Source: Candidatus Parcubacteria bacterium (lineage in GTDB: Bacteria > Patescibacteriota > Saccharimonadia > Saccharimonadales > Saccharimonadaceae). From it: DNA of 64,000 nucleotides. A program made the position numbers and the translations under genes. This document shows positions 93 through 57,596 of this stretch, piece after piece; position 1 is the first letter of the stretch, and the number at the start of each line of letters is the position of its first letter. The DNA is taken from contig JAEYUP010000001.1 of assembly GCA_023432445.1 (NCBI GenBank), positions 495,907-559,906 of the forward strand, given 5' to 3'. The notes beneath the pieces were generated by a model, which worked only from the letters and a program-made list of their open reading frames with translations, was not told where the DNA came from and did not search any database.

Positions 93-2888
93 ATGTTAGG
101 GGTTTTTATAACAGTCGTAGTTATCACAGCTTTGGTGGCAGGAGTTGGTTTTTTTGCTTGGTATCAATACCGCAAGCTACTGCGAGAAGCCAAGAATTAT
201 GAGCGCGGGCTCAAGATGGTGCCGCTTTACATTCATATCCCACCGATTAGCTCCGATATTGAGGGAAATGGCCGAGACGAGAGGGACCTGACAGAAGAGG
301 TGCTTTCACAGGCTCAGGTCATGTACAACATCATCGCGAGTACGGCGGTTAAGGGCTTTAAGAGTCGCGTCTATGGTCAGCGTCATATTTCGTTTGAGAT
401 TGTCGCTCACGAAGGGCTGGTTCATTACTATGCGGTCGTGCCGGTGTCATTGATAGACGTTATACAGCAGGCTGTTTCGGCGGCTTATCCGTCGGCAAGG
501 CTGGAAGAGGTTAGTGAACGCAACATATTCAACCCGGCTGGCAAGATGAGCGGTACGATCGGTGGTGAGTTTACGCTCAAAAAGGAGTTCGCCTTTCCTA
601 TCGCGACTTATCAGGAGACCAAGCGTGACGCAACACGTTCGCTTCTAGACGCTCTTTCCAAGGCTACCAGGGAAGACGGCGTTGGTATCCAAATTTTGAT
701 TCGCCCTGCGCACCAGGGTTGGACGAGTGTTGCTCAGGAGCTGGCCGATAAAATTCGCAAGGACAAGGGTCAGTCTAGCGGTGGTTTCAAGAGCAAGGGT
801 ATGCTAGAGGCACTCTGGAAACCGCCAGAGGTTAGCGAATCAAAGCCGGAGGATAGACAACTAAGTTCCACCGAGCAGGCCACGATAGATATGATTGGCG
901 ACAAGACGCGCTACCCAGGTTATGAAACTTTGATAAGAGTGGTTGCGTCTTCTGGTGTGGCCGGCAGGTCTCAGATGTTGATGAATAGTGTCGTATCAGC
1001 CTTTTCACTATTTGATTCTCCGACGAACAATGGCTTTAAGTTTACGGTTTCTAAGGATATTAGCGAGTTCGTGACGGCTTATATATTCCGTTTCTTCCCA
1101 CAAGAGGTGACGCAGAACATACTTAACACGGTGGAGTTGGCGACCATTTTTCATCTGCCAAATCAAAGCTCTATACCAACGTCTCAAGTACAACGACAGG
1201 CCACCAAGCAAGTTGATGGTCCCACACAGATACTCGATGAGGGCTTCTTGTTGGGCTACAACGAGTTCCGTGGAGTTAAAAAGCAGATCCGACTAGGGAC
1301 GAAGGACCGTCGTCGACACGCTTACATAATTGGTCAGACGGGAACAGGTAAGTCCAAGCTGCTCGAGAACCTGGCTTTTCAGGACATGATGGACGGGCGC
1401 GGTTTTGCATTTATCGATCCGCACGGCGACTCGGTTGAGGAGTTGCTGGGTATGGTGCCAAAGCACCGCGTCGAGGACGTTATTTACTTTAGTCCTGGAG
1501 ACATGGAGTCGCCGGTCGGGCTTAACCTGTTTGAGTTTGAGTACCAGGACCAGCGCGACTTCTTGATTCAAGAGACGATCGCGATGCTCTACAAGCTTTA
1601 TGACCCAGGGCACACGGGTATAATCGGCCCAAGGTTTGAGTCGTGGTTCCGAAACGCCGCTTTGACCGTGATGGCCGACCCTAATGGCTCATCGTTCCTG
1701 GATGTTCAACAGGTCTTTATAGACCAGGCCTTTGCCGACGAAAAGATCAAACACGTTAAGACGCAGTCGGTGCTTGATTTCTGGCACAAAGAGATGGCCC
1801 AAACGCCAGAGTCAGCCAAGGGAGAGATGCTTGGTTGGTTCGCCAGCAAGTTCGGCGCCTTTTTGGCTAATGACATGATGCGAAATATCATCGGGCAGAC
1901 CAAGAGTGGTTTTGATCTACGCGAGATAATGGACGGTAAAAAGATTTTATTAGTAAATCTCTCAAAGGGTAAAGTCGGGGAGCTAAACTCGCAGTTGCTT
2001 GGAATGATATTCGTTATGAAGTTTCAGGCGGCAGCGATGGGTCGGGCGAACGTGCCAGAGGACCAAAGAGAAGACTTCAGTCTGTATGTCGACGAGTTCC
2101 AGAACTTTGCAACTGATTCGTTCGCCACTATTTTGTCTGAGGCTCGAAAATATCGCCTGAGTCTCGTGCTAGCCAACCAGTTCATGACTCAGCTCACCGA
2201 CCAGATTAGGGAAGCTATCCTGGGTAACATCGGGACAGTTATAAGTGGTCGAATCGGTATAACGGACGCCGAGATATTGGTCAAGAAGTTTAGCCCAACG
2301 TTTGACGTTGAGGATCTAACAAGGATGCCTAATTTCCAGACGATTGCCTCCGTTATGATCCAGGACGTGCCGTCGGCCGCTTTCAGCATGTCGCTGTTAC
2401 CGCCGCTAGGCAAGTCAAACCCTGAGCTGAGAGACGCCCTTAAGCGCTTGTCGTCAGCTAAGTACGGCAAGCCACGCGCCGAAGTAGAAAGAGACTTTGC
2501 GATGCGTATGAGCGCGGGCGACGAAGCTCGAAAAGCCAAGATGGAGGCGATGAAACGAGCTCAGCAAGAGCGCATGGAGCGTTTTAAGGCTGGTAACGCC
2601 CTTCCTGGTGATCCAAACGCACCTGTTGTTCAATCAAGCGCCTCGCAGCCTCAGGCGGACAGTCCAAAGGTTACACCGCCATCTTTTCTTGATGAGTGGT
2701 TGGCTAAGCGTCAGCAAATTGTTCAGAATTCTCCTAATAATGCGCCGGCTCCAAACCCGGCTTTCGGCCCAACGGTTGGAGTGGCACCAACTGTAACAAG
2801 CACTACTAAAGAAGATGATCACAGGTTGTCTCTGAGAGACGACAACGCAAAAGACGACCATCCGGGCGTCTCGGTCAAGCTCCGCTAA
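93..2888 (+). CDS. Membrane-anchored VirD4/TraD/TrwB-like P-loop ATPase (type IV secretion coupling-protein-like)
   Basis: 931-aa ORF with an N-terminal TM helix (VFITVVVITALVAGVGFFAWY). Walker A IIGQTGTGKSKL is followed by FAFIDPHGD, and Walker B is LYVDEFQNF. SEARKYRLSLVLANQ block present. Long A/P/Q-rich low-complexity C-terminal tail. Confidence 0.65.
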   Translation: MLGVFITVVVITALVAGVGFFAWYQYRKLLREAKNYERGLKMVPLYIHIPPISSDIEGNGRDERDLTEEVLSQAQVMYNIIASTAVKGFKSRVYGQRHISFEIVAHEGLVHYYAVVPVSLIDVIQQAVSAAYPSARLEEVSERNIFNPAGKMSGTIGGEFTLKKEFAFPIATYQETKRDATRSLLDALSKATREDGVGIQILIRPAHQGWTSVAQELADKIRKDKGQSSGGFKSKGMLEALWKPPEVSESKPEDRQLSSTEQATIDMIGDKTRYPGYETLIRVVASSGVAGRSQMLMNSVVSAFSLFDSPTNNGFKFTVSKDISEFVTAYIFRFFPQEVTQNILNTVELATIFHLPNQSSIPTSQVQRQATKQVDGPTQILDEGFLLGYNEFRGVKKQIRLGTKDRRRHAYIIGQTGTGKSKLLENLAFQDMMDGRGFAFIDPHGDSVEELLGMVPKHRVEDVIYFSPGDMESPVGLNLFEFEYQDQRDFLIQETIAMLYKLYDPGHTGIIGPRFESWFRNAALTVMADPNGSSFLDVQQVFIDQAFADEKIKHVKTQSVLDFWHKEMAQTPESAKGEMLGWFASKFGAFLANDMMRNIIGQTKSGFDLREIMDGKKILLVNLSKGKVGELNSQLLGMIFVMKFQAAAMGRANVPEDQREDFSLYVDEFQNFATDSFATILSEARKYRLSLVLANQFMTQLTDQIREAILGNIGTVISGRIGITDAEILVKKFSPTFDVEDLTRMPNFQTIASVMIQDVPSAAFSMSLLPPLGKSNPELRDALKRLSSAKYGKPRAEVERDFAMRMSAGDEARKAKMEAMKRAQQERMERFKAGNALPGDPNAPVVQSSASQPQADSPKVTPPSFLDEWLAKRQQIVQNSPNNAPAPNPAFGPTVGVAPTVTSTTKEDDHRLSLRDDNAKDDHPGVSVKLR

Positions 2889-2897
2889 AGGAAATGC

Positions 2898-3461
2898 TTA
2901 TTTTTTGCCGGTAATCATGACTTTTAGAAAGTCGTAGAGTAGCCCGGCAATCCAGCCGGCTATAAAGGCGGCGATAGTTTCAAACCCTGAAAGTGGATAG
3001 CCGAAATTTTTGGCTACTAAATATACGGCCAGAACGGCCACAAAGGCGACAACTGCGCCACTTAAGATAGCGTTAGGGCGGGCGATGGTAGACCCGACCA
3101 CATCACTAATCTTCTCAACTGGCTTGGCGTGTATAAACTTACTAAAAGCGCGTTCTGGGGCCGATAGTTCGGCTCGAACGTTTTTCATGCGGTGATCGAA
3201 ACTAGCATCACGCTCTTTTTTGCTTATACCACGTCGAGGGGTGGGTGAGGTGCTACGCTTACGCTCAACCGTCTCTTTCTTTGCTTCGGCAGCTTTTTCG
3301 CGAGCTTCAACTAAAGCCGTTTCGGCTTTTTTCTCGGCGTTTTCCATCTTTGATTTCTCGGCGTTGGACTCTAGCTGTTCGGCCAGGCGCTCATACTGCT
3401 CGGCGCTTACCTCTGGTGTTTTGAGGTTTTCGTTGCTTTGTTCGGTGATTCGCTCTGCCAT
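2898..3461 (-). CDS. Hypothetical membrane protein (E/K/A-rich N-terminus, two C-terminal TM helices)
   Basis: 187-aa ORF whose start overlaps the stop of the upstream 3461..4633 ORF by 1 nt. Hydrophobic segments AILSGAVVAFVAVLAVYLVA and IAAFIAGWIAGLLYDFL. Confidence 0.55.
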   Translation of the reverse strand: MAERITEQSNENLKTPEVSAEQYERLAEQLESNAEKSKMENAEKKAETALVEAREKAAEAKKETVERKRSTSPTPRRGISKKERDASFDHRMKNVRAELSAPERAFSKFIHAKPVEKISDVVGSTIARPNAILSGAVVAFVAVLAVYLVAKNFGYPLSGFETIAAFIAGWIAGLLYDFLKVMITGKK

Positions 3462-4633
3462 TATATTGTCCCCGCATTAAGGTCTCGCCGGATAAGACGG
3501 ACTTCTTTGTTCATTTGTTTGGATCGGAAGTAGAAGTAGGAGACGATTGCTAAAACGATCCCACCGAAGATGACGTTTTCGGTTGGGCCGGTCTCTGGCA
3601 GTTCTCTGACGATTTCTTCAACTACTTTTGGTGGCGCACAGCTGACTGGTACCATTACGCCGTTGCCAAATACGTTATCCATCACACAGTCGTAGGATGT
3701 CTGGTCACTTTTTCCTACAGGTGTGGCTGGTATAGAAGCATTTAATTTTACGGCATAGCTACGTGACTCGGTTTTACTAGCGGCGATTGAAACCTCAGGC
3801 CAGGTAAGTGCCTTGGTGTCCTTGTTAAAGATACCGCCACCGTTATCTACTAGAGTAGAGTACTCCAGTATATCGCCCAGGTTGTCCTCAAAGACAGTAG
3901 ATACTGGACTACCGCCAGTGTTCTTGGCCGTCAGAGTGTAAGTTATGCGATCGTTGGCATGAGCCACCTGTTTAGAAGCGTCGATGTTACCCTGAGATAC
4001 GTTAAGAGCCGATTTTGAGAAGGTCAGTTTACCTGGTGCTGGTGGCACTTTTGGCGGCGGAATGTGAGTTGTTACCAGGTTGCCGCAGTCCTGCATGATA
4101 GCAAACCAGCCGATACTTGCAGAGTGACCTATGTAGCCATAGATAGTTTTGTTGCTGCTCTTGTATAGAGTAGACATTGGGCGGCCGTAAACGGTTGTGA
4201 CATGAGTACCGTTGGAGTCGGTGACTTTCATCGAGCCAGCGTCGATGGTGCGGGCGTGTCGGCCCCAGCTGTAGTAAGAGCTTGTTTTAAAGCTACCGTA
4301 AGCCGCTCGGTTAATTTCTTCTCTTGTGATACCAAAAGAGTTCATTATGTCTTGCAGATTGGCGGAGTTGCGATCGTAGGGGTTTAAGAAGTTGCTAAGA
4401 GACCGGTTCGAACCCAGACCTAGACCACCGTAGACCATGTCATTTGCGCTGGCGGCATTAGCTGGTTCAGGGGCCTGGAAGACTACTAGGGATTGTACGA
4501 CAAGAGCCAGAGCGGTGAATACAAGTCCTAAGCGGCGAGTAACTTGCTCTTTTCGAAGTCTCTTGGCGTAGAAACTCAATTGACCCACTAGGGCGGGGCT
4601 AAACGAGAGTCGAGATACTATGCGACGGAACAT
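3461..4633 (-). CDS. LPXTG-anchored cell-surface protein with DUF11-like repeat domain
   Basis: N-terminal signal/TM (LGLVFTALALVVQSLVVFQAPEPANA). C-terminal LPETG plus hydrophobic stretch plus basic tail forms a sortase sorting signal. ITYTLTAKNTGGSPVSTVFEDNLGD resembles the DUF11 conserved repeat. Confidence 0.7.
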   Translation of the reverse strand: MFRRIVSRLSFSPALVGQLSFYAKRLRKEQVTRRLGLVFTALALVVQSLVVFQAPEPANAASANDMVYGGLGLGSNRSLSNFLNPYDRNSANLQDIMNSFGITREEINRAAYGSFKTSSYYSWGRHARTIDAGSMKVTDSNGTHVTTVYGRPMSTLYKSSNKTIYGYIGHSASIGWFAIMQDCGNLVTTHIPPPKVPPAPGKLTFSKSALNVSQGNIDASKQVAHANDRITYTLTAKNTGGSPVSTVFEDNLGDILEYSTLVDNGGGIFNKDTKALTWPEVSIAASKTESRSYAVKLNASIPATPVGKSDQTSYDCVMDNVFGNGVMVPVSCAPPKVVEEIVRELPETGPTENVIFGGIVLAIVSYFYFRSKQMNKEVRLIRRDLNAGTI

Positions 4634-6775: not shown

Positions 6776-9292
6776 ATGAACGACGACACTGTAAATATGA
6801 ACGACGAACTACCTGTAGAGGGTGAAGTTATAGCACCGCTAGCTAACGGCTTAGAAGATAGGACTCTCGAGAAGGTCATGGAAGATAACTTCTTCCGCTA
6901 TTCAATGAGCGTCATTATCGAACGAGCTTTGCCAGACGTTCGCGATGGTTTGAAGCCTGTACATCGACGCATATTGCATTCGATGAACGTTAATGGCAAC
7001 CGAAGCACTGCTAAGTTTGTTAAAAGCGCACGTATAGTCGGTGACGTGATGGGTAAATTTCACCCGCACGGTGACTCAGCCATCTATGATTCGATGGTTC
7101 GACTAGCTCAGCCTTGGGCTCTTCGTTATCCGTTGATTCAAGGTCAAGGAAACTTTGGCTCTATGGATGGAGACCCGGCCGCGGCTAGCCGGTACACAGA
7201 GGCTAGATTGCAAAAGTTCTCAGATGAAATGCTGGCTGATATCGACAAGCAGACGGTTGATTTTCGTGATAACTATGACGGATCAGAGCAGGAACCAACC
7301 GTTCTGCCAGCCAAGATACCAAACCTACTCCTAAACGGACAAATAGGTATCGCCGTCGGTATGGCTACGAACATTCCGCCACACAACCTCGGCGAGCTAG
7401 TTGACGCTGTGGTAGAGCTGATCGACAACGAAGATGCTACACTCGATGACTTACTTAAGCACGTTAAGGGACCGGACTTTCCGACCGGGGCCGTAGTATA
7501 CGGCGGTTCGCCTATGAAGCAGGCTTATTTAACTGGTCGTGGTAGTGTAACTATGAGGGCCGTTGCTACGATTGAGGAGACCAAGAAGGGTCGTCACCAG
7601 ATTATAATCACCGAAATTCCTTATGGTGTAAATAAAGCATCACTTGTTGAAAAGATCGCTGAGCTTTACAAAGAGAAAAAGATTAACATTAGCGATCTGC
7701 GCGATGAAAGCTCTAGAGGCAAGGTCCGAGTTGTAGTAGAAGTTAAGAAAGATGGCTATCCGAAGAAGGTTCTTAACCAGCTTTACAAGCTAACCGCACT
7801 GCAAAGTAGCTTTAATTACAACATGTTGGCCTTGATTGACGGAATTCAACCACGAATCCTCGGCTTGCAGGAGATGTTGCAAGAGTTCATCAAGCACCGC
7901 CAGCAGGTTGTTCGCCGCCGTACTGAGTACGAGCTGAAGAAAGCCCGCGAACGAGCTCACATCCTCGAGGGCTACAAGATCGCACTTGATCACATTGATG
8001 AAGTAATTAGGATTATACGTGCCAGTAAGACGTCTGAGGAGGCTCAGAAGAACCTCATTAAGGAATTTAAGCTTAGTGAGATTCAGGCTCAGGCTATCTT
8101 GGCTATGCAGCTCCGAAGACTGACCGGCCTAGAGCGCGATGCTATTGAAAACGAGCTGAAAGAACTACTGGCGGCCATCAAGCGCTTTGAAGAAATCTTG
8201 GCTGACGAGAAAGAAATCTTGGCTATCATCAAAACCGAGTTGCTTGAAATCAAAGACAAGTTTGGTGACGAGCGTCGTTCACAGATCATCAATCATGAAC
8301 TCGGTAAGTTTAGTGATGAAGAGCTTATACCAGAGGAAGAATCCGTTGTTCTGCTTACAACAGAAAACTATATTAAGCGGACATTGGTGACAGAGTACCG
8401 TCGTCAACACCGTGGCGGCAAGGGTAAGCGCGGCATGACCACCAAGGAAGAGGACGTCATCGATCAGCTGATTCCGGCCAACACCCACGACTGGCTACTG
8501 TTCTTTACTAACAAGGGTCGTGTTTTTCGCCTCAAAGCTTACGAAGTCCCAGCGGCTAGCCTGGCAGCTAAGGGTGTGGCGGCAGTAAACCTGTTGGCAC
8601 TACAGCCTGAGGAAAAAATCACCTCTATTATCAAGCATGAAAAGAACGCTAGTGAAGATGGCTATCTATTTATGGCGACCGTCAAAGGCACAGTAAAGAA
8701 GACGCCGCTTAAGGATTACGCAAATATTCGAACAAATGGTTTAATCGCTATTAAACTTGATGAGGGTGACGAACTACGCTGGATCAAGCGAACCTCTGGA
8801 AGCGATGACATCATCATTTCGACTTCGGCAGGTCAAGCAATACGCTTCGGTGAATCCGATGCTCGACCGATGGGACGCTCAGCGCGAGGTGTTCGAGGTG
8901 TTCGCCTTCGACCAAATGACTCAGTGGTCGGGATGGACATAGTATCGAACAACGAAGGTACCTTGTTGGTTATTAGTAAGAATGGTTATGGAAAAGTTAC
9001 TAAGGCGGCCCAGTTCCCATCGCACAAACGTGGTGGTATTGGCATCAAAGCGGCAGTTGTGACGGCCAAAACCGGCCCGATAGTGGCAGTGCGATCGCTA
9101 GAAGAAGGTTCGGAAGAGATTCTGTTGATATCGAGCCAGGGCCAAGCGATTCGGGTTGGGCTTAAAGATATCCCAACTTTGGGCCGCACTACTCAAGGTG
9201 TTCGTATTATGCGAACTGGCGAAGACGACCAAGTGTCATCGTTCGGATTTGTACCTGCCCAGGCTGAACCCGAAGAAGGTGAGGCGGCGTGA
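6776..9292 (+). CDS. gyrA: DNA gyrase subunit A
   Basis: Motifs [27 protein letters not shown] (active-site Tyr context), [14 protein letters not shown], and C-terminal beta-pinwheel repeats. Confidence 0.95.
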
Positions 9293-9749: not shown

Positions 9750-9933
9750 TGAGCAAGTCTGGTCGTAAGACCGTAGGTCAACGTGGAGTTGAATAAAAGA
9801 CGAGATCGTTAACAATTTGGTTGTGCAAATCTAAAACACATTCGTATGGGTATTTATATCCTTCGGATGTTTTATTAATACGTCAGTAAATTATGTATAT
9901 TGAGTCTTGTAGTGTAGAACTACATTTTTATGG

Positions 9934-11404
<1,471 letters not shown>

Positions 11405-11599
11405 AGGGAGATGTTATGCCAGCAAAACGAGCAATCTTTTGCTGAAGCTAGGTCGGTCTTTTTGTTGTGTTGAGCTTACATAACAATATAGTTCTCAAAG
11501 ATTTATTCGCGAGAACAAGACGAAGTTCAAAAAAATCTCAGTATACTAGCCGACGATTAATATAGGGTTTGCACAACTAAGTTGTTAACAAAAGAAGGC

Positions 11600-11624
11600 C
11601 CCCGAAGTGTTTCGGGGTCTTTTT
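11600..11624 (+). terminator. Hairpin plus U-tract downstream of 16S (intrinsic-terminator-like)
   Basis: CCCCGAA-GTGT-TTCGGGG followed by TCTTTTT, immediately after the 16S processing stem. Confidence 0.55.
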
Positions 11625-11638
11625 AGTTTTGTTAACCC

Positions 11639-11667
11639 TTGCGAAATGAAGCCTTTTACGTTAAAAT
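11639..11667 (+). promoter_or_regulatory. Sigma-70-type promoter upstream of tRNA-Ala/tRNA-Ile
   Basis: TTGCGA (11639-11644), 17-nt spacer, TAAAAT (11662-11667), 22 nt upstream of tRNA-Ala. Confidence 0.6.
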
Positions 11668-11689
11668 ACCAAGAGTTCTGTCACGGCGT

Positions 11690-11766
11690 GGGGCAATAGC
11701 TCAGTTGGCTAGAGCACCTGCTTTGCAAGCAGGGGGTCCAGGGTTCGAGTCCCTGTTGCTCCACCA
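11690..11766 (+). tRNA. tRNA-Ala (anticodon TGC), CCA encoded
   Basis: Cloverleaf folds by hand. Acceptor GGGGCAA/TTGCTCC includes the G3:U70 pair. Anticodon loop is TTTGCAA and T-loop is GGTTCGAGTCC. Confidence 0.95.
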
Positions 11767-11842
11767 AACGAGGGGTGAATCTGGCGAAAGTCAGAGTCAC
11801 TCCACCAGAACTGATTTACATCAAAAAACACCACGAAATCGT

Positions 11843-11919
11843 GGGCGATTAGCTCAGCTGGTTAGAGCGCGTCACTGATAATGACGAGGTCGGAGGTTCG
11901 AGTCCCTCATCGCCCACCA
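11843..11919 (+). tRNA. tRNA-Ile (anticodon GAT), CCA encoded
   Basis: Acceptor GGGCGAT/ATCGCCC, anticodon stem-loop CGTCA-CTGATAA-TGACG, T-arm GGAGG-TTCGAGT-CCCTC, discriminator A. Confidence 0.95.
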
Positions 11920-11951
11920 CTCCGTGGTGTTTTTGTATTTACAGTGATATT

Positions 11952-12689
11952 ATGAGCGATATGATTGATCCTAAACCGACGCACGAAGCTACCCCCAGAG
12001 GACCGGACGCTATACAGCAGCAATCACCCGAAGGTGAGGTTGTTGGCGGCGAACGCCATCAGCGAATAGAGGAAGATAAAATTCAAGATATCCGCAGTCG
12101 GGTATTTTCACTTATAGCAGAGGAGGGCGGGCGCAGCATGCCAGGCTCTGGGTTCAGGCGGGTAGTATCGCATGAATTAGGGCAAGAGGGTGCCGATAAA
12201 CGCCCTATAGAAGCTGCAATACCTGAGTACGGGGAGTACATGAAGAACAGACGCGAGCAATTCCCTCAAAGAAATCTTTTCTCGCGTCGCCGACCTTATC
12301 AAGTAAAAGGCAAGGTAGAGGTGGCCGCTTACGATGGGCACTTCAGTGATATTCTAGACACCTCTCAAGATTTTCCAGGCAGCCAGACTTACGAGTATGT
12401 CGATTTAAGGGTGCAGAGATTTAGCGGAGATATATCGATTGAGGGCCAGGAATACCATATTGACGATGAGCTGGTGATAGATATTGCGTATGGCTACAAT
12501 TTCGACATAACTACCCCGCAGTATTTTCTTACAGTGAACACGAGACAATGTGAAATAGTAGCTAGAGAGGTAAGGGGTAGCCTTAACGATAAAGGTGCTC
12601 TATCTGACTTTACAAACGAAGAGTTGCTGGATAAAGCATTGACCGCAGCCGAACAAGGCAGGAAATTGAAACAAAAACCCGCTCGGTAG
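11952..12689 (+). CDS. Hypothetical protein embedded between tRNA-Ile and 23S rRNA
   Basis: 245-aa ORF with ordinary protein-like composition. No motif recognised and no SD. Confidence 0.5.
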   Translation: MSDMIDPKPTHEATPRGPDAIQQQSPEGEVVGGERHQRIEEDKIQDIRSRVFSLIAEEGGRSMPGSGFRRVVSHELGQEGADKRPIEAAIPEYGEYMKNRREQFPQRNLFSRRRPYQVKGKVEVAAYDGHFSDILDTSQDFPGSQTYEYVDLRVQRFSGDISIEGQEYHIDDELVIDIAYGYNFDITTPQYFLTVNTRQCEIVAREVRGSLNDKGALSDFTNEELLDKALTAAEQGRKLKQKPAR

Positions 12690-12752
12690 TGTCGGTTATT
12701 TGCATGGTGCTCAGCCGGGTCTTCGATCGACTGGGCAACATCGAAAAGAGTA

Positions 12753-12781
12753 TTGCAAAATTAAGCCCGCTGAACTATAAT
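12753..12781 (+). promoter_or_regulatory. Sigma-70-type promoter of the 23S-5S unit
   Basis: TTGCAA (12753-12758), 17-nt spacer, TATAAT (12776-12781). A weaker second candidate is TTTACA-18-TAGTAT at 12884-12913. Confidence 0.7.
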
Positions 12782-13073
12782 ACTAACTAATATAGTCACG
12801 TTCGTGGAGAACCTCTGACACAAGACGATAAAGCTCTAACTCACCCTCGAGTAAACTTTATCGCAGAAAATGCGAAAAACCACTTTACACTATGCGAGAG
12901 TAGGTGGTAGTATCAGAAAGCTTGATTGCGAACGGGACTCATCTGATAGAGGTGATTCGAAATGCGCAATCAATCGTTGAGCGCTGGACTTTAACAATTT
13001 AATGATGTAAGAAAATTTTAAAATTGACGGTCACGATGCAACTGGTTTTTACCAATTGCTCGTTAAGTCAATG

Positions 13074-16328
<3,255 letters not shown>

Positions 16329-16548
16329 TCCTTTTCTCCAACTGTTAGTCCTTGGATTAACTGAGGGGATAAGGTAGACTTAACGAGCAATTGGTGCAAA
16401 TCACTACGATTTCACCAAGAGTGTCAATTTTAACATTCTTACTAAAAGCATCGATACTATGAGAGTACACCCGTACTTTAATAGGCATCGAAGCAAGGTT
16501 TCGGCCCACTGACCTCTATATGTCAGCGCAAAGTGTCGGAAACCTTAC

Positions 16549-16657
<109 letters not shown>

Positions 16658-16664
16658 TTATATT

Positions 16665-18389: not shown

Positions 18390-20297
18390 GTGAAGTTATT
18401 AAAGCAATTATCCAAATACAAAAACTTTCTGACAGATCCCTCTCGTAGATATTGGGTTGTTGGCGGGGTTGTTTTGATTATTTTGCTGGTTGGGGCGGTA
18501 ACTTTTGTCATCCCAAAGAAAATAAACTTCTCGTATGCTGGGGAGTCTTGTGTTTCGCATCTGGCGCTATTTCCTGCGCTGAGCCATGATTCTGGCGGGG
18601 GTGGCTTTAAGCTTATTACTAAGGACGAGCTGAAGATTGGCTCTTTCACCTACGCCACCACGAAGGTCTGTGCGCAGCCCACAAAAGCACCGGCACCAGG
18701 AAACCATGAAGTGTCGCTTGCTGGCGTATTGGCCAAGAAATTTATAGTCAGTGTGGGTGAAGAGCCAGAGGCACACGCCAGTAGCATCGTTGGTCAGACT
18801 ATTTCGACGGCACTGCCGCTTGACGTCCAACTTTCGTCACCAGATACGGTTCATAACTACAAGTTTAAGGTGGGCGACAGGGCGACAGAGTGCACTCCGG
18901 GAGGTTCAGGGGTGCTATGCGAGGTGGCCGATTTAGGTCTAGCGCCCGGCAAAAAGTATACGGCCAGCTTGTTGCGTAGCTTCGAGCAGGATGAGGCCCG
19001 GACGCTTATAGAGGGTGAAGTAGAGACATTACGCCCGGTAGTAATGAAAAAAGCCGAAGTTTCCAAAGATAAAACCGTTTACAATTCACCCAAGAAGTTT
19101 GAATTCACTTTCGACAGGTCTATAGAAAAAGCCGAGATAACGTTAGAAAGGAAAGTGGGCGACTCCAAAGAATTAGTTGCAACCACTGTTTCGCAAGATG
19201 ATAATAAGGTTAATGTCAGTTTTGACGAGGAGCTGGCGCGGAAAGCTACCTACGTTTTGACAATCTCGCAGGTCGTTGCGGACAACGGTAGTTCACTCGA
19301 AAAGCCAATCATCATTAACTTTAAGACATCGGGCGGCCCAAAGCCAAAAGATGTTTCGGTTGGTTCAGTTGGGGTTGCACGCACGGCCCAGATTGTAGTC
19401 ACCCTCGATCAGCCGATGAAAAAAGACGTTGATATCTCCAAGTATGCCCGCGTAACAGGTGTAAGCGGAAGCGTTAAAAAGCTCTCTAGCACCAAAGTTG
19501 CCTTTAGTATAAATGGAGGCCTTTGTAAGGCGTTTAGTTTAATTATAGACAAGGGCGTAGCTAGCGATAGCAACTCGGCCGTATCTGACGCCTGGAAGTT
19601 CGACTCTAGAACGGTTTGCGGTACCACCTCTGTAATCGGCTACTCTGTAAACGGTCGCCCTATAATCGCTTATTACATCGGGACTGGCTCGTCGACAGTG
19701 ATGTTTACTGGTGGCATCCACGGTAACGAGTTGGCGGCTCAGCAGACTATGCAGGCCTGGGCAAATTACCTTATGTATTATGGCAATCAGATACCATCAA
19801 ACCGCCGAGTAGTGGTAGTACCTAACCTTAACCCCGACGGAATCGCCACGGGTAGTCGAAATAACGCTAACAACGTCAACTTGGGGCGAAATTACCCTTC
19901 TAGCAATTGGTCGGCTAGTATCGATACTGCCAATGGGGAACTACCTCAAGGCGGGGGCAGCAGTCCTGGTTCGGAGCCTGAGACTAAGGCTATCATGGCG
20001 TTGACCCGTCAGCTTAGACCACGGCTTGAGGTGTCATTCCACTCACAGGGTAGCTTGGTGGGCGCTAACAAGTACGGCAATTCGGTCGCAGTGGGCTCAA
20101 CCTACGCCAATATGGTCGGCTACGGCACGATGTTTTACAACGCGGAAGAAGTCATGGGGTATTCTATAACTGGTGAGTACGAAGAGTGGATGGGCGAAGA
20201 AATGGGTATTCCGGCAATTCTCATCGAGCTGCCGTCGCACTACGGCAATTATCTTGAGTGGCACTTGAAGGCACTTCTCAAGACGCTTACAGTATAA
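18390..20297 (+). CDS. Membrane-anchored M14-family zinc carboxypeptidase-like protein with Ig-like stalk
   Basis: GTG start and N-terminal TM (WVVGGVVLIILLVGAVTFVI). About 400 aa of beta-rich, SbsA-Ig-like sequence. C-terminal FTGGIHGNELAAQQ (HxxE), SEPETKA and SFHSQG motifs of M14 peptidases. Confidence 0.7.
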   Translation: MKLLKQLSKYKNFLTDPSRRYWVVGGVVLIILLVGAVTFVIPKKINFSYAGESCVSHLALFPALSHDSGGGGFKLITKDELKIGSFTYATTKVCAQPTKAPAPGNHEVSLAGVLAKKFIVSVGEEPEAHASSIVGQTISTALPLDVQLSSPDTVHNYKFKVGDRATECTPGGSGVLCEVADLGLAPGKKYTASLLRSFEQDEARTLIEGEVETLRPVVMKKAEVSKDKTVYNSPKKFEFTFDRSIEKAEITLERKVGDSKELVATTVSQDDNKVNVSFDEELARKATYVLTISQVVADNGSSLEKPIIINFKTSGGPKPKDVSVGSVGVARTAQIVVTLDQPMKKDVDISKYARVTGVSGSVKKLSSTKVAFSINGGLCKAFSLIIDKGVASDSNSAVSDAWKFDSRTVCGTTSVIGYSVNGRPIIAYYIGTGSSTVMFTGGIHGNELAAQQTMQAWANYLMYYGNQIPSNRRVVVVPNLNPDGIATGSRNNANNVNLGRNYPSSNWSASIDTANGELPQGGGSSPGSEPETKAIMALTRQLRPRLEVSFHSQGSLVGANKYGNSVAVGSTYANMVGYGTMFYNAEEVMGYSITGEYEEWMGEEMGIPAILIELPSHYGNYLEWHLKALLKTLTV

Positions 20298-20303
20298 AAA
20301 ACA

Positions 20304-20329
20304 ACCCACCTCGCTGGTTGGGTCGTTTT
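20304..20329 (+). terminator. Hairpin plus T-tract after the M14 peptidase gene
   Basis: ACCCACC-TCGCT-GGT(T)GGGT followed by CGTTTT. Confidence 0.45.
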
Positions 20330-20443
20330 GAGTTGTTTTTGAATCTCGATTTTTGAAGATTCAAACAGGTGCTTATCTATAATATCCCACCAGGTGGGTA
20401 TTGGCAATAGTAGCATAAACATTAAATTGCGCTTACGTAAATG

Positions 20444-20472
20444 TTGACATAAAGCATAAGCTATAGTATAAT
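20444..20472 (+). promoter_or_regulatory. Consensus sigma-70 promoter (TTGACA-17-TATAAT)
   Basis: TTGACA 20444-20449, 17-nt spacer, TATAAT 20467-20472, about 90 nt upstream of the KGG-protein start. Confidence 0.8.
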
Positions 20473-20565
20473 GATAACCAGACACATATCATGTGTGAGG
20501 TATTAATGAGGGTTTTCACGCCGTATCGGTGGTGGGAACCTTTTTAATTAGGAGGAAACTGCATC

Positions 20566-20763
20566 ATGGCAGGAACCAAAGAGGGTGGCCGGAAGGCTGC
20601 ACAAAAGAACCTACAACGTGACCCACTCTTCTACGCGAAGATCGGTCGCAAGGGTGGCCAAATGGGCCGCACTGGCGGATTTGCTGCCAACCCAGAGCTA
20701 GCTCGCATCGCGGGCGCAAAGGGTGGACGTATCTCACGCCGCACTAGCAAAAAGGCTGCTTAA
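20566..20763 (+). CDS. General stress protein with KGG repeats (YciG/GsiB-like)
   Basis: 65-aa basic ORF with repeated GRKGG / GAKGG motifs. AGGAGG SD lies 10 nt upstream. Confidence 0.7.
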   Translation: MAGTKEGGRKAAQKNLQRDPLFYAKIGRKGGQMGRTGGFAANPELARIAGAKGGRISRRTSKKAA

Positions 20764-20780
20764 TAGGCTTTTTGCAAACG

Positions 20781-20812
20781 AAAGAACTCCCCAGTTGAGA
20801 GGAGTTCTTTTT
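20781..20812. terminator. Bidirectional terminator between convergent genes
   Basis: AAAGAACTCC-(10-nt loop)-GGAGTTCTTT followed by TTATT. Confidence 0.75.
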
Positions 20813-21269
20813 ATTGGCGGATTTTTTTGCGTTTTAACCCGCAAAGCCGGGCTTCGTTAACTTGCCACCGACAGGTACAGGCTGGGCAGGTGTATTCTTT
20901 GGCGCCTGATTGATAACCGCTGGCCGAACAGTCAGGGCAGGTGCTACGAGCGTGCATCCAGTCGCGATAAGTGTTGAGATTGTCGTTTATGACTTCCTCG
21001 GAGATGCTAATACCGTATTTAGAGCTGATTTCCCGAGCTTTTTCCCAAGCTGCCGCTTCCATGTTTACAAGAGAAAGGTCTTCCTGGTAGCTCTTGTGGC
21101 CGAGTATGCCGTGCGAGAGTTCGTGTAGAAGCAGTATCTCATCGTGATCTTCGGCGTTAAAGTGAACGGTGTGGGTTTCGGGGGCCCAAGCGTAGCGCGA
21201 GTCTGGCGTAAAGCGAAGCTCGGGGTAGTCAGAGGTGAGTCTAGCGAGAAGTGAGTTCATCGAGGGCAT
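20811..21269 (-). CDS. Putative zinc metalloprotease-like protein (HExxH) with C-terminal Cys4 zinc ribbon
   Basis: LLLHELSHGILGH motif. C-terminal CPDC ... CPAC pairs. Confidence 0.5.
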   Translation of the reverse strand: MPSMNSLLARLTSDYPELRFTPDSRYAWAPETHTVHFNAEDHDEILLLHELSHGILGHKSYQEDLSLVNMEAAAWEKAREISSKYGISISEEVINDNLNTYRDWMHARSTCPDCSASGYQSGAKEYTCPACTCRWQVNEARLCGLKRKKIRQ

Positions 21270-27898: not shown

Positions 27899-27985
27899 TA
27901 TCTATACAGTATACAGAATCAAAGGGGAGAATTACAGAGGCAAACGCGCTTCGATCTGCATCTTGCTCATGCTATACTTTACTAT

Positions 27986-29110
27986 ATGCACTCTCGTGGA
28001 CGAAAGAAAAATAAAAACATATCTAGGCCAGCCTTTACGATCGTCGAACTACTGATAGTCGTAGTTGTCATTTCGATTCTTGCCACGCTTTCCTTTGTAG
28101 CCTATAACGGGATCACAGACCGCGCCAAAGACGCTGCCGCTAAAAACGAAGCAAAGCAAACCTACACCAAGCTGCTTACGCATTCTATCAGCAATAATGA
28201 CCAGTACCCTGTTGATTTGGAAGATATTGGCGTGTCGAGCTCTGACGACACGTTCTACGAGTACACCCGTGACGACCCATCGACCTTTTGTCTAACCACG
28301 ACCGTGGCGGGCATCAGTTACTATGTATCTTCGTCCCAGTCTACGCCTAAGGAAGGTCTTTGCGATGGGCACCTGGGTGAAGAGGCGCCACCACCTCCGC
28401 CACCGCCAATTGCCGACGGTGACTTCCTTCAAATAATTACGAGTGAAAACTGCCCGAGTACGAGAGTCCGTGCTGTCGATGCTCGTGATAACCGCACGTA
28501 TTGGGTCCAAGAGATGGCTGATGGTAGGTGTTGGATGCTCACTAACCTAGCTTATGCCGGGGGAGGCGCGAATACCTATGGCGACGTCAGAACATTAACC
28601 ACTGGGGGTTCCGCAACCTATACTGAGCCAAAGTACTATGCCCCAAGTGGCGCTAATCCCACTACTGAGCCGAATAATCCTTCTACGGCCACGAATGCTA
28701 GTGGCCAGTACGGCTACTTATACAATTGGTGTGGCGCCATGGGCGGACAGGCTACCGCGGCCTGTGCGAACGCCGAAACCCCAACCCCTGACACAACTGT
28801 CACAGTTTGCCCGGCGAGTTGGAGACTCCCTATCGGAACCCCGACTACGGGTGAGTTTGCGCTGCTTAATAATGCAGTAAACGGCGGATCCACATCGAAC
28901 AGCTCAGGACTTCGCTCTACTTGGCTTGGCCAGTATAGCGGTCGTGGCGGTAGCAGCTTCGTAAATCAGGGCGTTTATGGCTATTACTGGTCTTCAACTC
29001 AAGACCTCGGCTCCAACGCTAAGTATTTATTGTTCGGCAACCCTTTTGTTTATGCACCCGATACAACAACCAAGAATCTTGGTCTTGCGGTACGCTGTGT
29101 AGCTATTTAG
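27986..29110 (+). CDS. Type IV pilin-like protein fused to a FISUMP (Fibrobacter succinogenes major paralogous) domain
   Basis: Start ATG 27986. Prepilin-type N-terminus RPA/FTIVELLIVVVVISILA with Glu at +5. Poly-Pro linker EEAPPPPPPPI. C-terminal RDNRTYWVQEMADGRCWMLTNLAY, YGYLYNWCGAM, CPASWRLP, GYYWSST, LGLAVRCV. Confidence 0.75.
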   Translation: MHSRGRKKNKNISRPAFTIVELLIVVVVISILATLSFVAYNGITDRAKDAAAKNEAKQTYTKLLTHSISNNDQYPVDLEDIGVSSSDDTFYEYTRDDPSTFCLTTTVAGISYYVSSSQSTPKEGLCDGHLGEEAPPPPPPPIADGDFLQIITSENCPSTRVRAVDARDNRTYWVQEMADGRCWMLTNLAYAGGGANTYGDVRTLTTGGSATYTEPKYYAPSGANPTTEPNNPSTATNASGQYGYLYNWCGAMGGQATAACANAETPTPDTTVTVCPASWRLPIGTPTTGEFALLNNAVNGGSTSNSSGLRSTWLGQYSGRGGSSFVNQGVYGYYWSSTQDLGSNAKYLLFGNPFVYAPDTTTKNLGLAVRCVAI

Positions 29111-46427: not shown

Positions 46428-48929
46428 ATGGGAGCAAAATTGCGAGCACTATATCAAAGAATCGGCCTAACGACGGCAAGTCTCGTCTTGGCAATAAGTA
46501 CATTGACGGCGGCTGTGCCGTTTATTTTGTCGCAGAATGTTGGTGCGGCTAGCCCAACAACAGTTTGTGAGACGGGCGGCTGTACGTACACTAGCCTTCA
46601 AGACGCTATCGATGCGGTTTCTGATGGAACTAGCATCTCTATACAGAGTGATCTGCACACCAGTTCTGAGGTAAGGATTACAAAACCAGTTACTATTCGG
46701 GGACACGGGTTTACAATATTCCCACTGTTTAGCTTTGTGTCGAACTCTGGGTCAAACTCGGTAATAGAAGTACTCGGAGCGTCGGCGTCTAACGTAGTTA
46801 TCAATAACCTTACTATCGAGGGTGTGGGTGGAACAAACATTCACGGAATCAACCTTTACGAGGCTCCACGAGTTGAAGTAACTAACGTTACTATTCGTAA
46901 CAACGACAAATCTGGACTTGTAGTAAACCGTTCGGTAGCAATAGTAGAAAACATTACTACCAGTGGTAACGGCTGGAATGGTATCAACGTAGACTCAACT
47001 GATGGTATTACTAATTCAAAGCTTCGAATTAAGAACGTTAGCTCTCACTCGGAGACAGCGCCTATTTACATTGATGATACAACTCGTCCTGTAGAGGTTA
47101 TCGATGTCCACAATCAGTACAACTATGCACACATTAACCATGAAGGCTCTCACCCTTATGACCGCGTTTATGCTCTAAAGATTGCTGGTCCAACTTTAAA
47201 CACACCAGCTACTGACAGCGTCTTCAAGACTAGCGACCTTCCAAAGACACAGTCATGGACTGCGGTTGCTGGTGCTACTCAGTACCGTTACGAAAGTTAT
47301 ACAGAAGACCCTACCGTAAATCCATCAGCAACTCCTTTCTATGGCGAGAATCGAACAGGAACTAGCCGAACAATTGGTAATACCGCGCCGGAAGGTAAGT
47401 ATTGGTGGAGGGTGAAGGCGACTGTTGGTCCGTTTGAGTCCGAATGGAGCGCCGTACGCACGTTCTCAGTTGATAACACTGCTCCAGTAGTGTCAATAGC
47501 GCAGCCTACAGGCTCTCTGTACAGCTCTAACACAGAAGTGCGCGGAACCGTAACTGACGAAAACCTACGCCACTACTGGGTGCAAGTGAAGCGAAACGGT
47601 TTGGTTGTATACAGCAACACAGTTCTTAGCACTGGTATCTCAAACGAATTACTATATACAGCAAACCTTGATGGTGACTACGAAGTAACTCTCGCGGCTC
47701 GCGATACTGCTGGCGGTGGATCAGGCACGGGTAACCGTAGCGTCGATGCGGTTAAGACTTTTACTGTTGATAAGACAGCCCCAGCGGTTCCTACGGATCT
47801 GGCATGGACAAACGCTGATGGCTCTATCGTTAACGGCGGGGTCACTAACCTATACAGCGGTACAGCTTCATGGGGCGCAAGCGACAGCGACACAGTTCGC
47901 TACATCTATCGATACTGGAATACTATTTCGAGCTCGCCTTACGGCGCAAGCTCTCCATGGGAGAACCCAAGCCTAACTGGATTGAGTGCTGCTGGAGTAT
48001 TTAATCAGGGAGAGGGTACTCACTTCTTCAGCGTCGCTGCAGTCGATCATGCTGGAAACGTCTCAGAATTTAGTGCTCCATTCGAGATTACTTACGATGC
48101 AACAAACCCAACAGTTCTAGTTTCGGCGACCAGCCCAGCTGGTGGACCAACTGGAACGAGCACAATCTCTGCGACGATTGACGATGCTGTAAGCTACGAG
48201 CTATTTGTCGACGGCGTATCTGTTGCAACTGGCGATGCCACTTTCTCGGACTTTGTCCTTGACACGACAACATATACATCGGGTTCATACGTAGTTAAAG
48301 TTGTAGCGGTTGACGCAGCTGGTAACGTTGGCGAAGGCGAGACTACAATTGTTATCGACAACGACGCCCCTGCGGCTCTTATCACTACAACCGGCACTCA
48401 AGCGACTGCAACCCCAGTTATTGAGGGAACAGTTGACACTGACGCTACTGAACTAGAGTTCTACATTAACGGCGTACTTCAGACAACCGGTCTTACCTGG
48501 ACCACCGGTGACAGCACCTGGTCATTTACCGGTGTAACATTCACCGATGGTGACTACGAACTGTCTATCGTGGCTCGTGATACTTACGGCAACGAGGGCG
48601 GACAGCTAGCTGATATGACCGTTTCTATCCCAGTTATCGAAGACGATCCTGAAACTGAAGAAGACGAGTCTGCACCAGCTACTACAACGACACCTGGCGA
48701 AGTTCTTGGCGACCAGGACACTAACCCTGACTTGACTCCAGAGGACGATGAGCAGGCAGTTGAGGGTGACTCAACTGAGCAGGCTGCTCAGGCTACTGAC
48801 GCTGATAGCGACAACGACAGTTCACTTCTAGGACTCGCTTGGTACTGGTGGGTGCTGATCGGGGCAGCCGTACTAGGTGCTGGATGGTGGATAGTCGGTG
48901 CTATCCGACGACGCGGCGCAGACGCTTAG
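46428..48929 (+). CDS. Large surface protein: right-handed beta-helix plus several Ig-like domains, acidic stalk, C-terminal TM anchor
   Basis: Signal/TM N-terminus. Parallel beta-helix-like repeats (NNLTIEG, NVTIRNN, NITTSGN). Ig-like modules each open with D(N/K/A)TAP-type strands (DNTAPVVSI, DKTAPAVP, DATNPTV, DNDAPAA). D/E/T-rich linker, then WYWWVLIGAAVLGAGWWIVGAI plus RRRG. Confidence 0.7.
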   Translation: MGAKLRALYQRIGLTTASLVLAISTLTAAVPFILSQNVGAASPTTVCETGGCTYTSLQDAIDAVSDGTSISIQSDLHTSSEVRITKPVTIRGHGFTIFPLFSFVSNSGSNSVIEVLGASASNVVINNLTIEGVGGTNIHGINLYEAPRVEVTNVTIRNNDKSGLVVNRSVAIVENITTSGNGWNGINVDSTDGITNSKLRIKNVSSHSETAPIYIDDTTRPVEVIDVHNQYNYAHINHEGSHPYDRVYALKIAGPTLNTPATDSVFKTSDLPKTQSWTAVAGATQYRYESYTEDPTVNPSATPFYGENRTGTSRTIGNTAPEGKYWWRVKATVGPFESEWSAVRTFSVDNTAPVVSIAQPTGSLYSSNTEVRGTVTDENLRHYWVQVKRNGLVVYSNTVLSTGISNELLYTANLDGDYEVTLAARDTAGGGSGTGNRSVDAVKTFTVDKTAPAVPTDLAWTNADGSIVNGGVTNLYSGTASWGASDSDTVRYIYRYWNTISSSPYGASSPWENPSLTGLSAAGVFNQGEGTHFFSVAAVDHAGNVSEFSAPFEITYDATNPTVLVSATSPAGGPTGTSTISATIDDAVSYELFVDGVSVATGDATFSDFVLDTTTYTSGSYVVKVVAVDAAGNVGEGETTIVIDNDAPAALITTTGTQATATPVIEGTVDTDATELEFYINGVLQTTGLTWTTGDSTWSFTGVTFTDGDYELSIVARDTYGNEGGQLADMTVSIPVIEDDPETEEDESAPATTTTPGEVLGDQDTNPDLTPEDDEQAVEGDSTEQAAQATDADSDNDSSLLGLAWYWWVLIGAAVLGAGWWIVGAIRRRGADA

Positions 48930-48952
48930 GCTTAAAAAACAGACCAAAAATA

Positions 48953-48980
48953 AAGTCCTCGCATCTAGCGGGGACTTTTA
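48953..48980 (+). terminator. Intrinsic terminator
   Basis: AAGTCCTCGC-ATCTA-GCGGGGACTT followed by TTAATTT. Confidence 0.65.
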
Positions 48981-49023
48981 ATTTACTGGCGCAAAAAACC
49001 TCTTATGCTATACTATTGGTATT

Positions 49024-49938
49024 GTGACAAAAACAAAACAAACATCAGTAAAGAGAAAAGCTCTACCGGCGAAAACGCGGCAACATGCCAAGCGTTTGTT
49101 GGTCCCTCACAAGGCGAATGATTATCGACCGCACCTTATACGTACGCCGGCTATCGTGCTGGTGATTGTCATATCGCTGCTGGTGCAGGTAGTCTATGGT
49201 TTTATCACGACCGGGCACATAGAGGTGTTAGGTCGAGTTTCAAACATCACGACCTCTGAGCTTTTGTCGGGCACTAACCACGAGCGAGCTTCTGAGGGTC
49301 TCGGTGAGCTGAAAATGAACGACTCCTTGAACGAGGCCGCTTTTCGTAAAGCCCAAGACATGTTTGCTAATGATTATTGGGCACACACCTCACCGAGTGG
49401 TGTAAAGCCCTGGAGGTGGTTGGCTGATGTCGGCTATAGATATAGCGTAGCAGGGGAGAACTTAGCGAAGAATTACCCGAACGCTTCGGCGGCGGTAGCA
49501 GCCTGGATGGGGTCTGAAACGCACCGAGCAAATATTTTGAACGATAAATACAGCGAAGTTGGTTTTGCGGTCGTCGACGGCGAGTTAAATGGTCGTGAGA
49601 CGACGCTGGTCGTGGCTTTTTACGGCGCTCCGGCAACCGAGGCGGCGGTCCGTGGCTCATCAACACCAATTGAATACGCCGCCCCAGTATCGGCCGGTGG
49701 AACTAACCCAGCTGGCTACTTTGCGACTGCCTTGCAATCGCTCAGCCCAGCAACCATTTTCTGGCTTGGACTGTTGGCGATAGTGTCGATAGTGGCGGCG
49801 GCGGCTCACCATTACCGCGACAAGCTACCAAAGAGCTGGAAGAAAAGCTGGAAGCTTCATCACGGTCTCTATACCTTCCTCGGCATGATGCTCATGGGCG
49901 TCATGTTGGTCCTGGCTACTGGCGGCGGGTCGATTTAA
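49024..49938 (+). CDS. CAP/SCP (YkwD-like) domain membrane protein
   Basis: GTG start and N-terminal TM. NHERASEGLGELKMN ... YWAHTSPSG ... GENLAKNY ... WMGSETHRANIL CAP-domain pattern. Two C-terminal TM helices. Confidence 0.75.
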   Translation: MTKTKQTSVKRKALPAKTRQHAKRLLVPHKANDYRPHLIRTPAIVLVIVISLLVQVVYGFITTGHIEVLGRVSNITTSELLSGTNHERASEGLGELKMNDSLNEAAFRKAQDMFANDYWAHTSPSGVKPWRWLADVGYRYSVAGENLAKNYPNASAAVAAWMGSETHRANILNDKYSEVGFAVVDGELNGRETTLVVAFYGAPATEAAVRGSSTPIEYAAPVSAGGTNPAGYFATALQSLSPATIFWLGLLAIVSIVAAAAHHYRDKLPKSWKKSWKLHHGLYTFLGMMLMGVMLVLATGGGSI

Positions 49939-57515: not shown

Positions 57516-57596
57516 AATCCGAACTATTGTATCTGTTTTTTGTTCATTTGTCCAGACCTTTGTCTCTGTAAAAAAGAGCGTATAATAAAAGTACAT

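Follow-up and report, generated by a model that had tools for sequence, protein, structure and literature searches.

A solitary Saccharibacteria gene for a predicted type IV pilin with an appended FISUMP module, and the retroelements of its relatives

Introduction

What is made by a gene that joins the N-terminus of a type IV pilin to a FISUMP (Fibrobacter succinogenes major paralogous) domain and stands by itself between housekeeping genes, and could its product recognise a host cell? We wanted to answer this for one such gene of a Saccharimonadales genome (Candidatus Parcubacteria bacterium, assembly GCA_023432445.1, contig JAEYUP010000001.1). The gene lies in a stretch of 64 kb, hereafter the window, that was scanned as a whole and represents about 10% of the genome; an identical protein is known from a 645-kb contig. 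For ultrasmall Saccharibacteria, host recognition and attachment are still poorly understood, and type IV pili together with lectin-like minor pilins have been implicated in TM7x. An earlier reading of the window from its letters (the sequence-only reading) had proposed a pilin whose globular head is replaced by a FISUMP domain, displayed on a pilus as a candidate host-recognition determinant. Our analysis points to a modular type IV pilin, most likely an adhesin displayed on a pilus, and we infer its processing, assembly, position in the filament, adhesin function and ligand from the comparisons given below.

Results

The predicted pilin part of the protein

The N-terminus of the protein consists of MHSRGRKKNKNISRPA followed by FTIVELLIVVVVISILA, with a mature start FTIVE and a Glu at position +5. 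The TIGR02532 model matched it with 20.2 bits (cut-off 16.3) within residues 16-35, and F17 (+1), T18 (+2) and E21 (+5) were found to be invariant in 42 homologues. The class III signal that had been read from the sequence (RPA before FTIVELLIVVVVISILA, Glu+5) is thereby upheld, TIGR02532 lying above its cut-off and PF07963 slightly below.

To describe the residues that follow, we used AlphaFold2 (AF2), profile searches and Foldseek. In the AF2 model built from the 42 homologues, residues 19-125 reached a pLDDT (predicted local distance difference test) of 85-98 and showed the lollipop fold, in which a long alpha1 helix (residues 19-69), hydrophobic in its N-terminal part where it carries Glu+5, packs on an antiparallel beta-sheet head of three to four strands (89-97, 100-107 and 110-115 in the model). 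The head also holds Cys102 and Cys126, both conserved in at least 90% of the 42 homologues, a pair that would suit a pilin disulfide. The family profile matched solved pilins at values from 1.2e-14 to 1e-7, among them Geobacter PilA (1.2e-14), Thermus thermophilus PilA4 (6xxd, 7.9e-13, positions 15-114) and Neisseria PilE (5.4e-11). PilA4 was also the top Foldseek match of the pilin module (6xxd_A, probability 1.00, TMt 0.60).

The idea that the FISUMP domain takes the place of the globular head was rejected, as residues 19-125 model as a complete small pilin. Because the modelled head is complete and its Cys pair is conserved, the FISUMP module is predicted to be appended to the pilin rather than to replace part of it. 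The two parts are joined by a proline linker, as had been proposed, with a run of seven residues (P135-P141, nt 28388-28408) and not the eight that had been counted; it is unconserved in the family: the orthologue has P6, and other homologues have a variable or Gly-rich linker or none.

The FISUMP part of the protein

The FISUMP signature noted in the C-terminal part proved to be genuine, since both family models that were searched exceeded their curated cut-offs: TIGR02145 gave 54.3 bits (cut-off 41.65) over residues 164-372 and PF09603 gave 44.8 bits (cut-off 33.9). Six Cys of the module are conserved (156, 182, 249, 260, 275 and 371). In the whole-protein AF2 model (42 sequences) the FISUMP part was poor, with a pLDDT of 30-78, and the fold search made with that model returned pilins only. 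Residues 143-374 modelled alone with 124 homologues reached a pLDDT of 95.5 and a pTM (predicted template modelling score) of 0.92. This model matched two predicted phage structures named 'Fibrobacter succinogenes major paralogous domain' (E 7.3e-07 and 9.6e-05). Among solved structures, weak fold matches were obtained with the C-terminal domain of Legionella Lcl (8q4e, E 0.11), with 4EPS (0.19) and with Bd2740 (1.1), and a profile search of Protein Data Bank (PDB) sequences returned nothing for the module.

Diversity-generating retroelements at related loci

The aligned family shows strong conservation of the FISUMP scaffold and hypervariability in the last ~60 residues, where invariant framework positions are interspersed. 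Several of the related loci encode a reverse transcriptase (RT) of the kind found in diversity-generating retroelements (DGRs), with the motifs IGNLTSQ and YxDD. At locus L090, the gene P0134 encodes a pilin-FISUMP protein of the same subfamily as the window gene (50% identity, full length) and is followed by a 239-aa open reading frame (ORF), an RT (IGNLTSQ, YVDD) and a 202-bp template repeat (TR); the variable region (VR) of P0134 and this TR differ at 17 positions, all of them adenines of the TR. At locus L078, a 188-bp segment at the 3' end of the pilin-FISUMP gene (N-terminus ...RLAPAFTIVELLIVVVVIAILA) is repeated 1.5 kb downstream with the RT between the copies, and the copies differ at 23 sites, each of them an adenine in the downstream one. 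The four members of the 90% cluster of P0134 are near-identical over ~350 aa and carry ~25 discrete differences in the last 60 aa, which indicates, at the level of sequence, an ongoing diversification in nature.

The C-terminus of the window protein aligns without gaps to the L090 VR and TR. At the 18 positions that are Asn in the L090 template, the window protein has R320, G322, S323, V326, N327, Y331, Y333, D340, N344, L349, G351, Y356, D359, T360, T361, T362, N364 and L365. In the family, an entropy of at least 3.0 bits was reached by 17 of the 18 TR-Asn columns and by 5 of the 48 other columns (Fisher p 1.7e-10, Mann-Whitney p 3.7e-09; as the family sequences are related, these nominal p-values overstate significance). 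The same coincidence of TR-Asn codons with hypervariable columns was found with the L078 template. Codons ending in a pyrimidine make up 83% at TR-Asn columns versus 65% at other variable columns family-wide, an NNY bias that is the footprint to be expected from AAY-to-NNY mutagenesis. Altogether, the variable tip of the family is homologous to real DGR variable regions. The tip is presumed to be the binding site because DGRs rewrite it in relatives, and the ligand-binding function earlier suggested for FISUMP domains gains indirect support in this way.

DGR-targeted FISUMP proteins with a non-pilin N-terminus are the commoner DGR targets in Saccharibacteria. Three of them, of 450-477 aa (L087:3568-4917, L088:3455-4888 and L089:3472-4902), begin with an LANTG-like motif, a hydrophobic helix and a basic tail, which resembles a sortase signal but is N-terminal; their VR and TR differ at 30, 28 and 17 positions, respectively, all at adenines. 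Because these DGRs target FISUMP proteins with a non-pilin anchor, the variable FISUMP module is, judging from the sequences, shared between different surface anchors. A published classification of DGR variable regions assigns Fib_succ_major, together with DUF1566 and DUF823, to its CLec2 class (Wu et al., PMC5758913), and DGR targets of the candidate phyla radiation (CPR, including Saccharibacteria) were mostly without recognisable domains in the survey of Roux et al. Our literature search found no paper describing DGR hypermutation of type IV pilins in Saccharibacteria.

The L078 gene shows a further peculiarity at its 5' end. Between 7928 and 8036 of that locus the only ATG (7928, 9 nt after TGCTATACT) is +1 out of frame with the pilin frame, from which a (CT)11 tract (7978-7999) separates it. 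One more CT restores the frame, and the offset could reflect either slipped-strand phase variation or an assembly error.

Family membership and mosaic structure

The search returned 651 homologues at E<=1e-5; the best 120 of them are mostly 350-390 aa long and carry both Pfam domains, and several homologues are named by JGI 'TIGR02145 family / prepilin-type N-terminal cleavage/methylation domain'. A genome survey, as the sequence-only reading had suggested, gave 79 related loci in species-representative genomes, nearly all of them in Saccharibacteria or Saccharimonadales, which bears out the assignment of the organism. Up to seven copies occur per genome, with tandem arrays of 3-5 copies in some genomes and two copies (L028, L045) in the cultivated strain TM7i, which grows in co-culture with Leucobacter; the TM7i homologues lie at about 748,679-749,767 and 358,113-359,177 of CP075337.1. 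At locus L082 (metagenome-assembled genome SZUA-359, QJZZ01000001.1; 7115-12305) a gene for an RCC1 beta-propeller protein that resembles TM7x PilX2 lies directly 5' of three tandem pilin-FISUMP genes, and a further copy is found ~8 kb downstream of the trio (20046-21122).

Is the architecture itself new? The entry IPR011871 is presumably that of FISUMP/TIGR02145, although a search gave no independent confirmation of its name. With 40 proteins, the architecture IPR012902-IPR011871 ranks fifth in abundance among the modular pilin types in Dataset S1 of Raynaud et al. (2021, PMC8179133), who call the function of the IPR011871 module unclear. The pilin-FISUMP architecture is therefore not new, having been catalogued, annotated automatically by JGI and found in hundreds of members, and the window gene is an ordinary new member of a known family. 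Our literature search found no paper on FISUMP in Saccharibacteria. To our knowledge, no pilin-FISUMP protein has been studied experimentally so far.

We compared the window gene with its closest relatives. A second paralogue of the same genome, P0033 (51% identity), is also solitary and lies between the genes for CTP synthase and glucose-6-phosphate dehydrogenase. The syntenic orthologue P0003 (L085:8001-9137) shares 66% identity overall, and its flanking genes 66-92%; its tip is the most diverged part (47% identity) and its scaffold reaches 72%. The pilin module is 68% identical to that of P0003 versus 45% for the non-syntenic P0006 (L086:4669-5733), whereas the C-terminal tip is 78% identical in protein to that of P0006 versus 47% for P0003. 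Because the pilin module is nearest P0003 and the tip nearest P0006, the window gene looks mosaic, which suggests an exchange of modules between paralogues. The ratio of nonsynonymous to synonymous substitutions (dN/dS) was not computable, synonymous sites being saturated in all pairs.

Start codon, promoter and neighbouring genes

The features of the gene are collected in Table 1. Its ATG is the single possible start ahead of the hydrophobic helix, and the syntenic orthologue begins at the same Met. A start downstream of the helix, which would have left no pilin signal, was rejected, as there is no alternative start codon; the check thus leaves one usable start, before the helix. An upstream start at GTG 27755 was rejected as well: it overlaps def on the opposite strand, the orthologue Met corresponds to the ATG call, and the longer version matches only an over-extended gene call, P0121.

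The element TGCTATACT was confirmed in the sequence where it had been reported, followed by 7 nt and the ATG. No Shine-Dalgarno sequence precedes this ATG. A generic sigma-70 (-35/-10) and terminator scan called neither TGCTATACT as a promoter nor any terminator. The arrangement suggests a leaderless or very short-leader mRNA for the window gene. Because a TGnTAnnnT-like element recurs 6-10 nt 5' of the ATG in about 10 of 43 homologous genes (e.g. L025, L028, L034, L035 and L045), a short or absent leader is plausible as a family trait.

Table 1. Positions of the pilin-FISUMP gene and its parts in the window
Feature	Position	Strand	Basis or remark
Complete coding sequence, predicted modular type IV pilin	27986..29110	+	374 aa + stop; ORF list and sequence
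Class III (prepilin) leader, residues 1-16, MHSRGRKKNKNISRPA	27986..28033	+	Predicted cleavage after Ala16
Predicted pilin module, residues 17-130	28034..28375	+	AF2, family profile, Foldseek
Linker, residues 131-142, GEEAPPPPPPPI	28376..28411	+	Sequence; pLDDT ~66
FISUMP (Fib_succ_major, C-type-lectin-like) module, residues 143-374	28412..29107	+	Hidden Markov models and AF2
DGR variable-region equivalent, residues 309-374, presumed ligand-binding tip	28910..29107	+	Gapless alignment to L090 VR/TR
Extended -10 promoter-like element TGCTATACT	27970..27978	+	7 nt 5' of ATG, read from sequence

The gene is flanked by housekeeping genes. Upstream, fmt and def are encoded on the opposite strand; downstream, priA is convergent; and the genes for IF-2, S1 and RecJ are nearby. 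A VKOR homologue is encoded at 57540-58190 of the window. It is likely a disulfide-forming oxidoreductase, by its sequence, and could serve the eight conserved Cys of the pilin-FISUMP protein.

Other parts of the window were also looked at. The rRNA operon (9927-16658) has the order 16S, tRNA-Ala, tRNA-Ile, a 245-aa ORF and 23S; the spacer ORF (11952-12689) has no Pfam match, and the 23S spans 3253 nt versus 2925 positions of the model, pointing to an insertion. At 93-4633, the gene for a 931-aa TraG/VirD4-like coupling ATPase (DUF87 and TraG-D_C matches) is followed by two opposite-strand ORFs of no clear family, and the region may belong to a type IV secretion or conjugation-like system of Patescibacteria. 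Finally, the region 46428-49938 encodes an 833-aa protein that has bacterial Ig-like domains and weakly matches a pectate-lyase-like adhesive domain, followed by a CAP-domain protein; both are candidate surface proteins.

Discussion

We propose the following course of events for the window protein. The basic 16-residue leader would be cleaved off by a prepilin peptidase whose gene lies outside the window, and the mature FTIVE... protein would be inserted into a filament by type IV pilus machinery through alpha1 with Glu5 and the presumably disulfide-bonded beta-sheet head. Its most plausible position would be that of a low-abundance subunit at the filament tip. There, the proline-rich linker would hold out the 230-residue, disulfide-rich, C-type-lectin-like FISUMP module, with a ligand-binding face probably made of the C-terminal beta-strands and loops at residues ~320-365, as the homology to DGR variable regions suggests. 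In relatives a DGR rewrites this face; in the window's genome the gene appears to be a fixed allele that lacks a retroelement of its own. It is one of two or more paralogues that stand alone among housekeeping genes, and each would probably provide one specificity for a surface molecule of the host or of a neighbouring cell. The sequence-only reading of a pilus subunit that displays a FISUMP domain thus survives in part: the true pilin module, the linker and the FISUMP module correspond to the published concept of modular pilins, and the replaced head does not stand.

Several observations weigh against this proposal. PF07963 reached 19.8 bits over residues 16-35, just short of its cut-off of 21.2. 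Residue -1 is Ala and not the canonical Gly, as it is in 12 of 43 family genes, most of the others having Gly. In mutagenesis of a Pseudomonas pilin, Ala is reportedly the one substitution at -1 that still permits cleavage. No assembly partners were found in the window: among the ORFs of at least 110 aa, which were Pfam-scanned across the 64 kb, there was no prepilin peptidase and no PilB, PilC, PilM, PilT or other pilus-machinery gene, and no second pilin turned up in a six-frame motif scan of the window, both scans agreeing with the claim that the gene stands alone. Foldseek against the PDB gave no significant solved-structure match for the FISUMP module (best E 0.11), and we know of no FISUMP domain with a known ligand.

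The solitary position, distant from any pilus genes, would also suit a surface-anchored binding protein that uses its class III signal for export and anchoring only, as in an archaeal 'bindosome' (sugar-binding-like) or a short pseudopilus, and that is not polymerised into long pili. Such a protein would resemble the related DGR-targeted proteins in which the FISUMP module sits on a transmembrane helix with an LANTG-like motif and not on a pilin; the module therefore appears to work on other surface anchors. Ala at -1 may also reduce cleavage. We consider this alternative unlikely, as a mere anchor would not need the whole pilin fold, which is conserved in the family with its head and Cys pair, as the module matches major pilins of real filaments in both sequence and fold, and as the invariant Glu+5 is a feature of filament assembly. 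If the protein is polymerised, it could instead be the major subunit of a filament of its own, with a FISUMP module on every subunit of the shaft. The pilin module is indeed nearer to major pilins (the Myxococcus PilA model, Thermus PilA4, Geobacter PilA) than to minor-pilin models, the tandem arrays of some genomes would fit, and a flexible linker could permit packing in the shaft, as discussed for modular pilins (PMC8179133). However, a 230-residue module on each subunit would be hard to pack, the major pilins of characterised Saccharibacteria are small and their large modular pilins minor (PMC11623550), and the paralogues are highly divergent in alpha1 and head (45-68% identity). We regard a major subunit of this kind as highly improbable and favour a minor pilin, most plausibly at the tip.

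Could the window gene itself be an active DGR target, diversified in trans by a retroelement elsewhere in the 645-kb genome? Its C-terminus is a gapless homologue of a genuine variable region, and its last 18 nt (CGCTGTGTAGCTATTTAG) are one base off the end of the L090 VR and TR. Remote DGR targets have been documented (PMC5758913), DGR-type RTs abound in Saccharibacteria (at least 7990 matches to the L078 RT), and the window shows just a tenth of the genome. Against this, no TR-like copy of the gene was found, there being no repeat longer than 16 nt anywhere in the 64 kb, and an RT was likewise absent from this stretch, with no domain in the scanned large ORFs and no motif flagged. The best 120 of the RT matches include no contig recognisable as the window's genome. 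The two paralogues of this genome, the window gene and P0033, share 52% nucleotide identity in the VR; therefore, one template cannot serve both. The tip, 78% identical in protein to that of P0006 with synonymous sites saturated, points to purifying selection rather than hypermutation, and 4 of the 18 template-Asn positions have purine-ending codons. Diversification in trans is thus very unlikely, and the window gene is probably a fixed allele with no retroelement of its own. A wider view, for which we put the chances at about even, is that the pilin-FISUMP family of Saccharibacteria forms a repertoire of type IV pilus adhesins whose binding face is written by DGRs, with cassettes kept, and variation in natural populations, at L090 and L078, and with the window gene as a 'frozen' product, a specificity made by a DGR and then kept by purifying selection after the loss of its cassette.

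The predicted protein resembles several known systems. Like PilB and PilC of Streptococcus sanguinis, modular type IV pilins that carry a vWA and a lectin module, respectively, it combines a complete pilin, a linker and a module that is not specific to pili (PMC8179133). Unlike them, the window gene is solitary, outside any pilus operon, and has many Saccharibacteria paralogues. It also shows the combination of prepilin motif and IPR011871 that defines the IPR012902-IPR011871 type of Raynaud et al. (PMC8179133). In Nanosynbacter lyticus TM7x, a member of the same phylum, lectin-like modular minor pilins mediate host binding, to which PilX2 contributes (PMC11623550). PilX1 and PilX2 likewise consist of a pilin with an extra C-terminal carbohydrate-binding-like domain, but the folds added there, a beta-jelly roll and an RCC1 beta-propeller, differ from FISUMP, which the TM7x study does not mention. 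Their genes belong to pilus loci, and neither protein has a predicted PilD signal (PMC11623550); the signal of the window protein is clear.

As in the CLec2 variable proteins of DGRs, with Legionella LdtA as prototype, the variable region ends a C-type-lectin-like domain (PMC5758913). The invariant scaffold (W..Q..G, YWSS, K..G.AVRC) is interleaved with variable positions in a CLec2-like manner, the L090 and L078 proteins being true targets. LdtA differs in being a lipoprotein, the window protein being pilin-anchored and without a nearby TR or RT. In Bacteroides, tip adhesins of type V pili are diversified by DGRs (PMC11601372; structure 4EPS), and the relatives of the window gene similarly combine a pilus subunit with a C-lectin-like tip that a DGR rewrites; in the fold search above, 4EPS ranked second, with a weak match. 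Unlike type IV pili, type V pili assemble by strand exchange and are unrelated to them, and the carrier domains and the phylum differ as well.

What is new here is the link between DGRs and type IV pilins at the level of the family, not the gene itself. The comparison with DGR-bearing relatives yields 18 residues predicted to be the likeliest to contact the ligand, and these tip residues are concrete targets for mutagenesis, glycan arrays and deletion studies. If the wider view given above is true, epibionts could use retroelement-driven hypermutation of a type IV pilin to shift or widen their host range.

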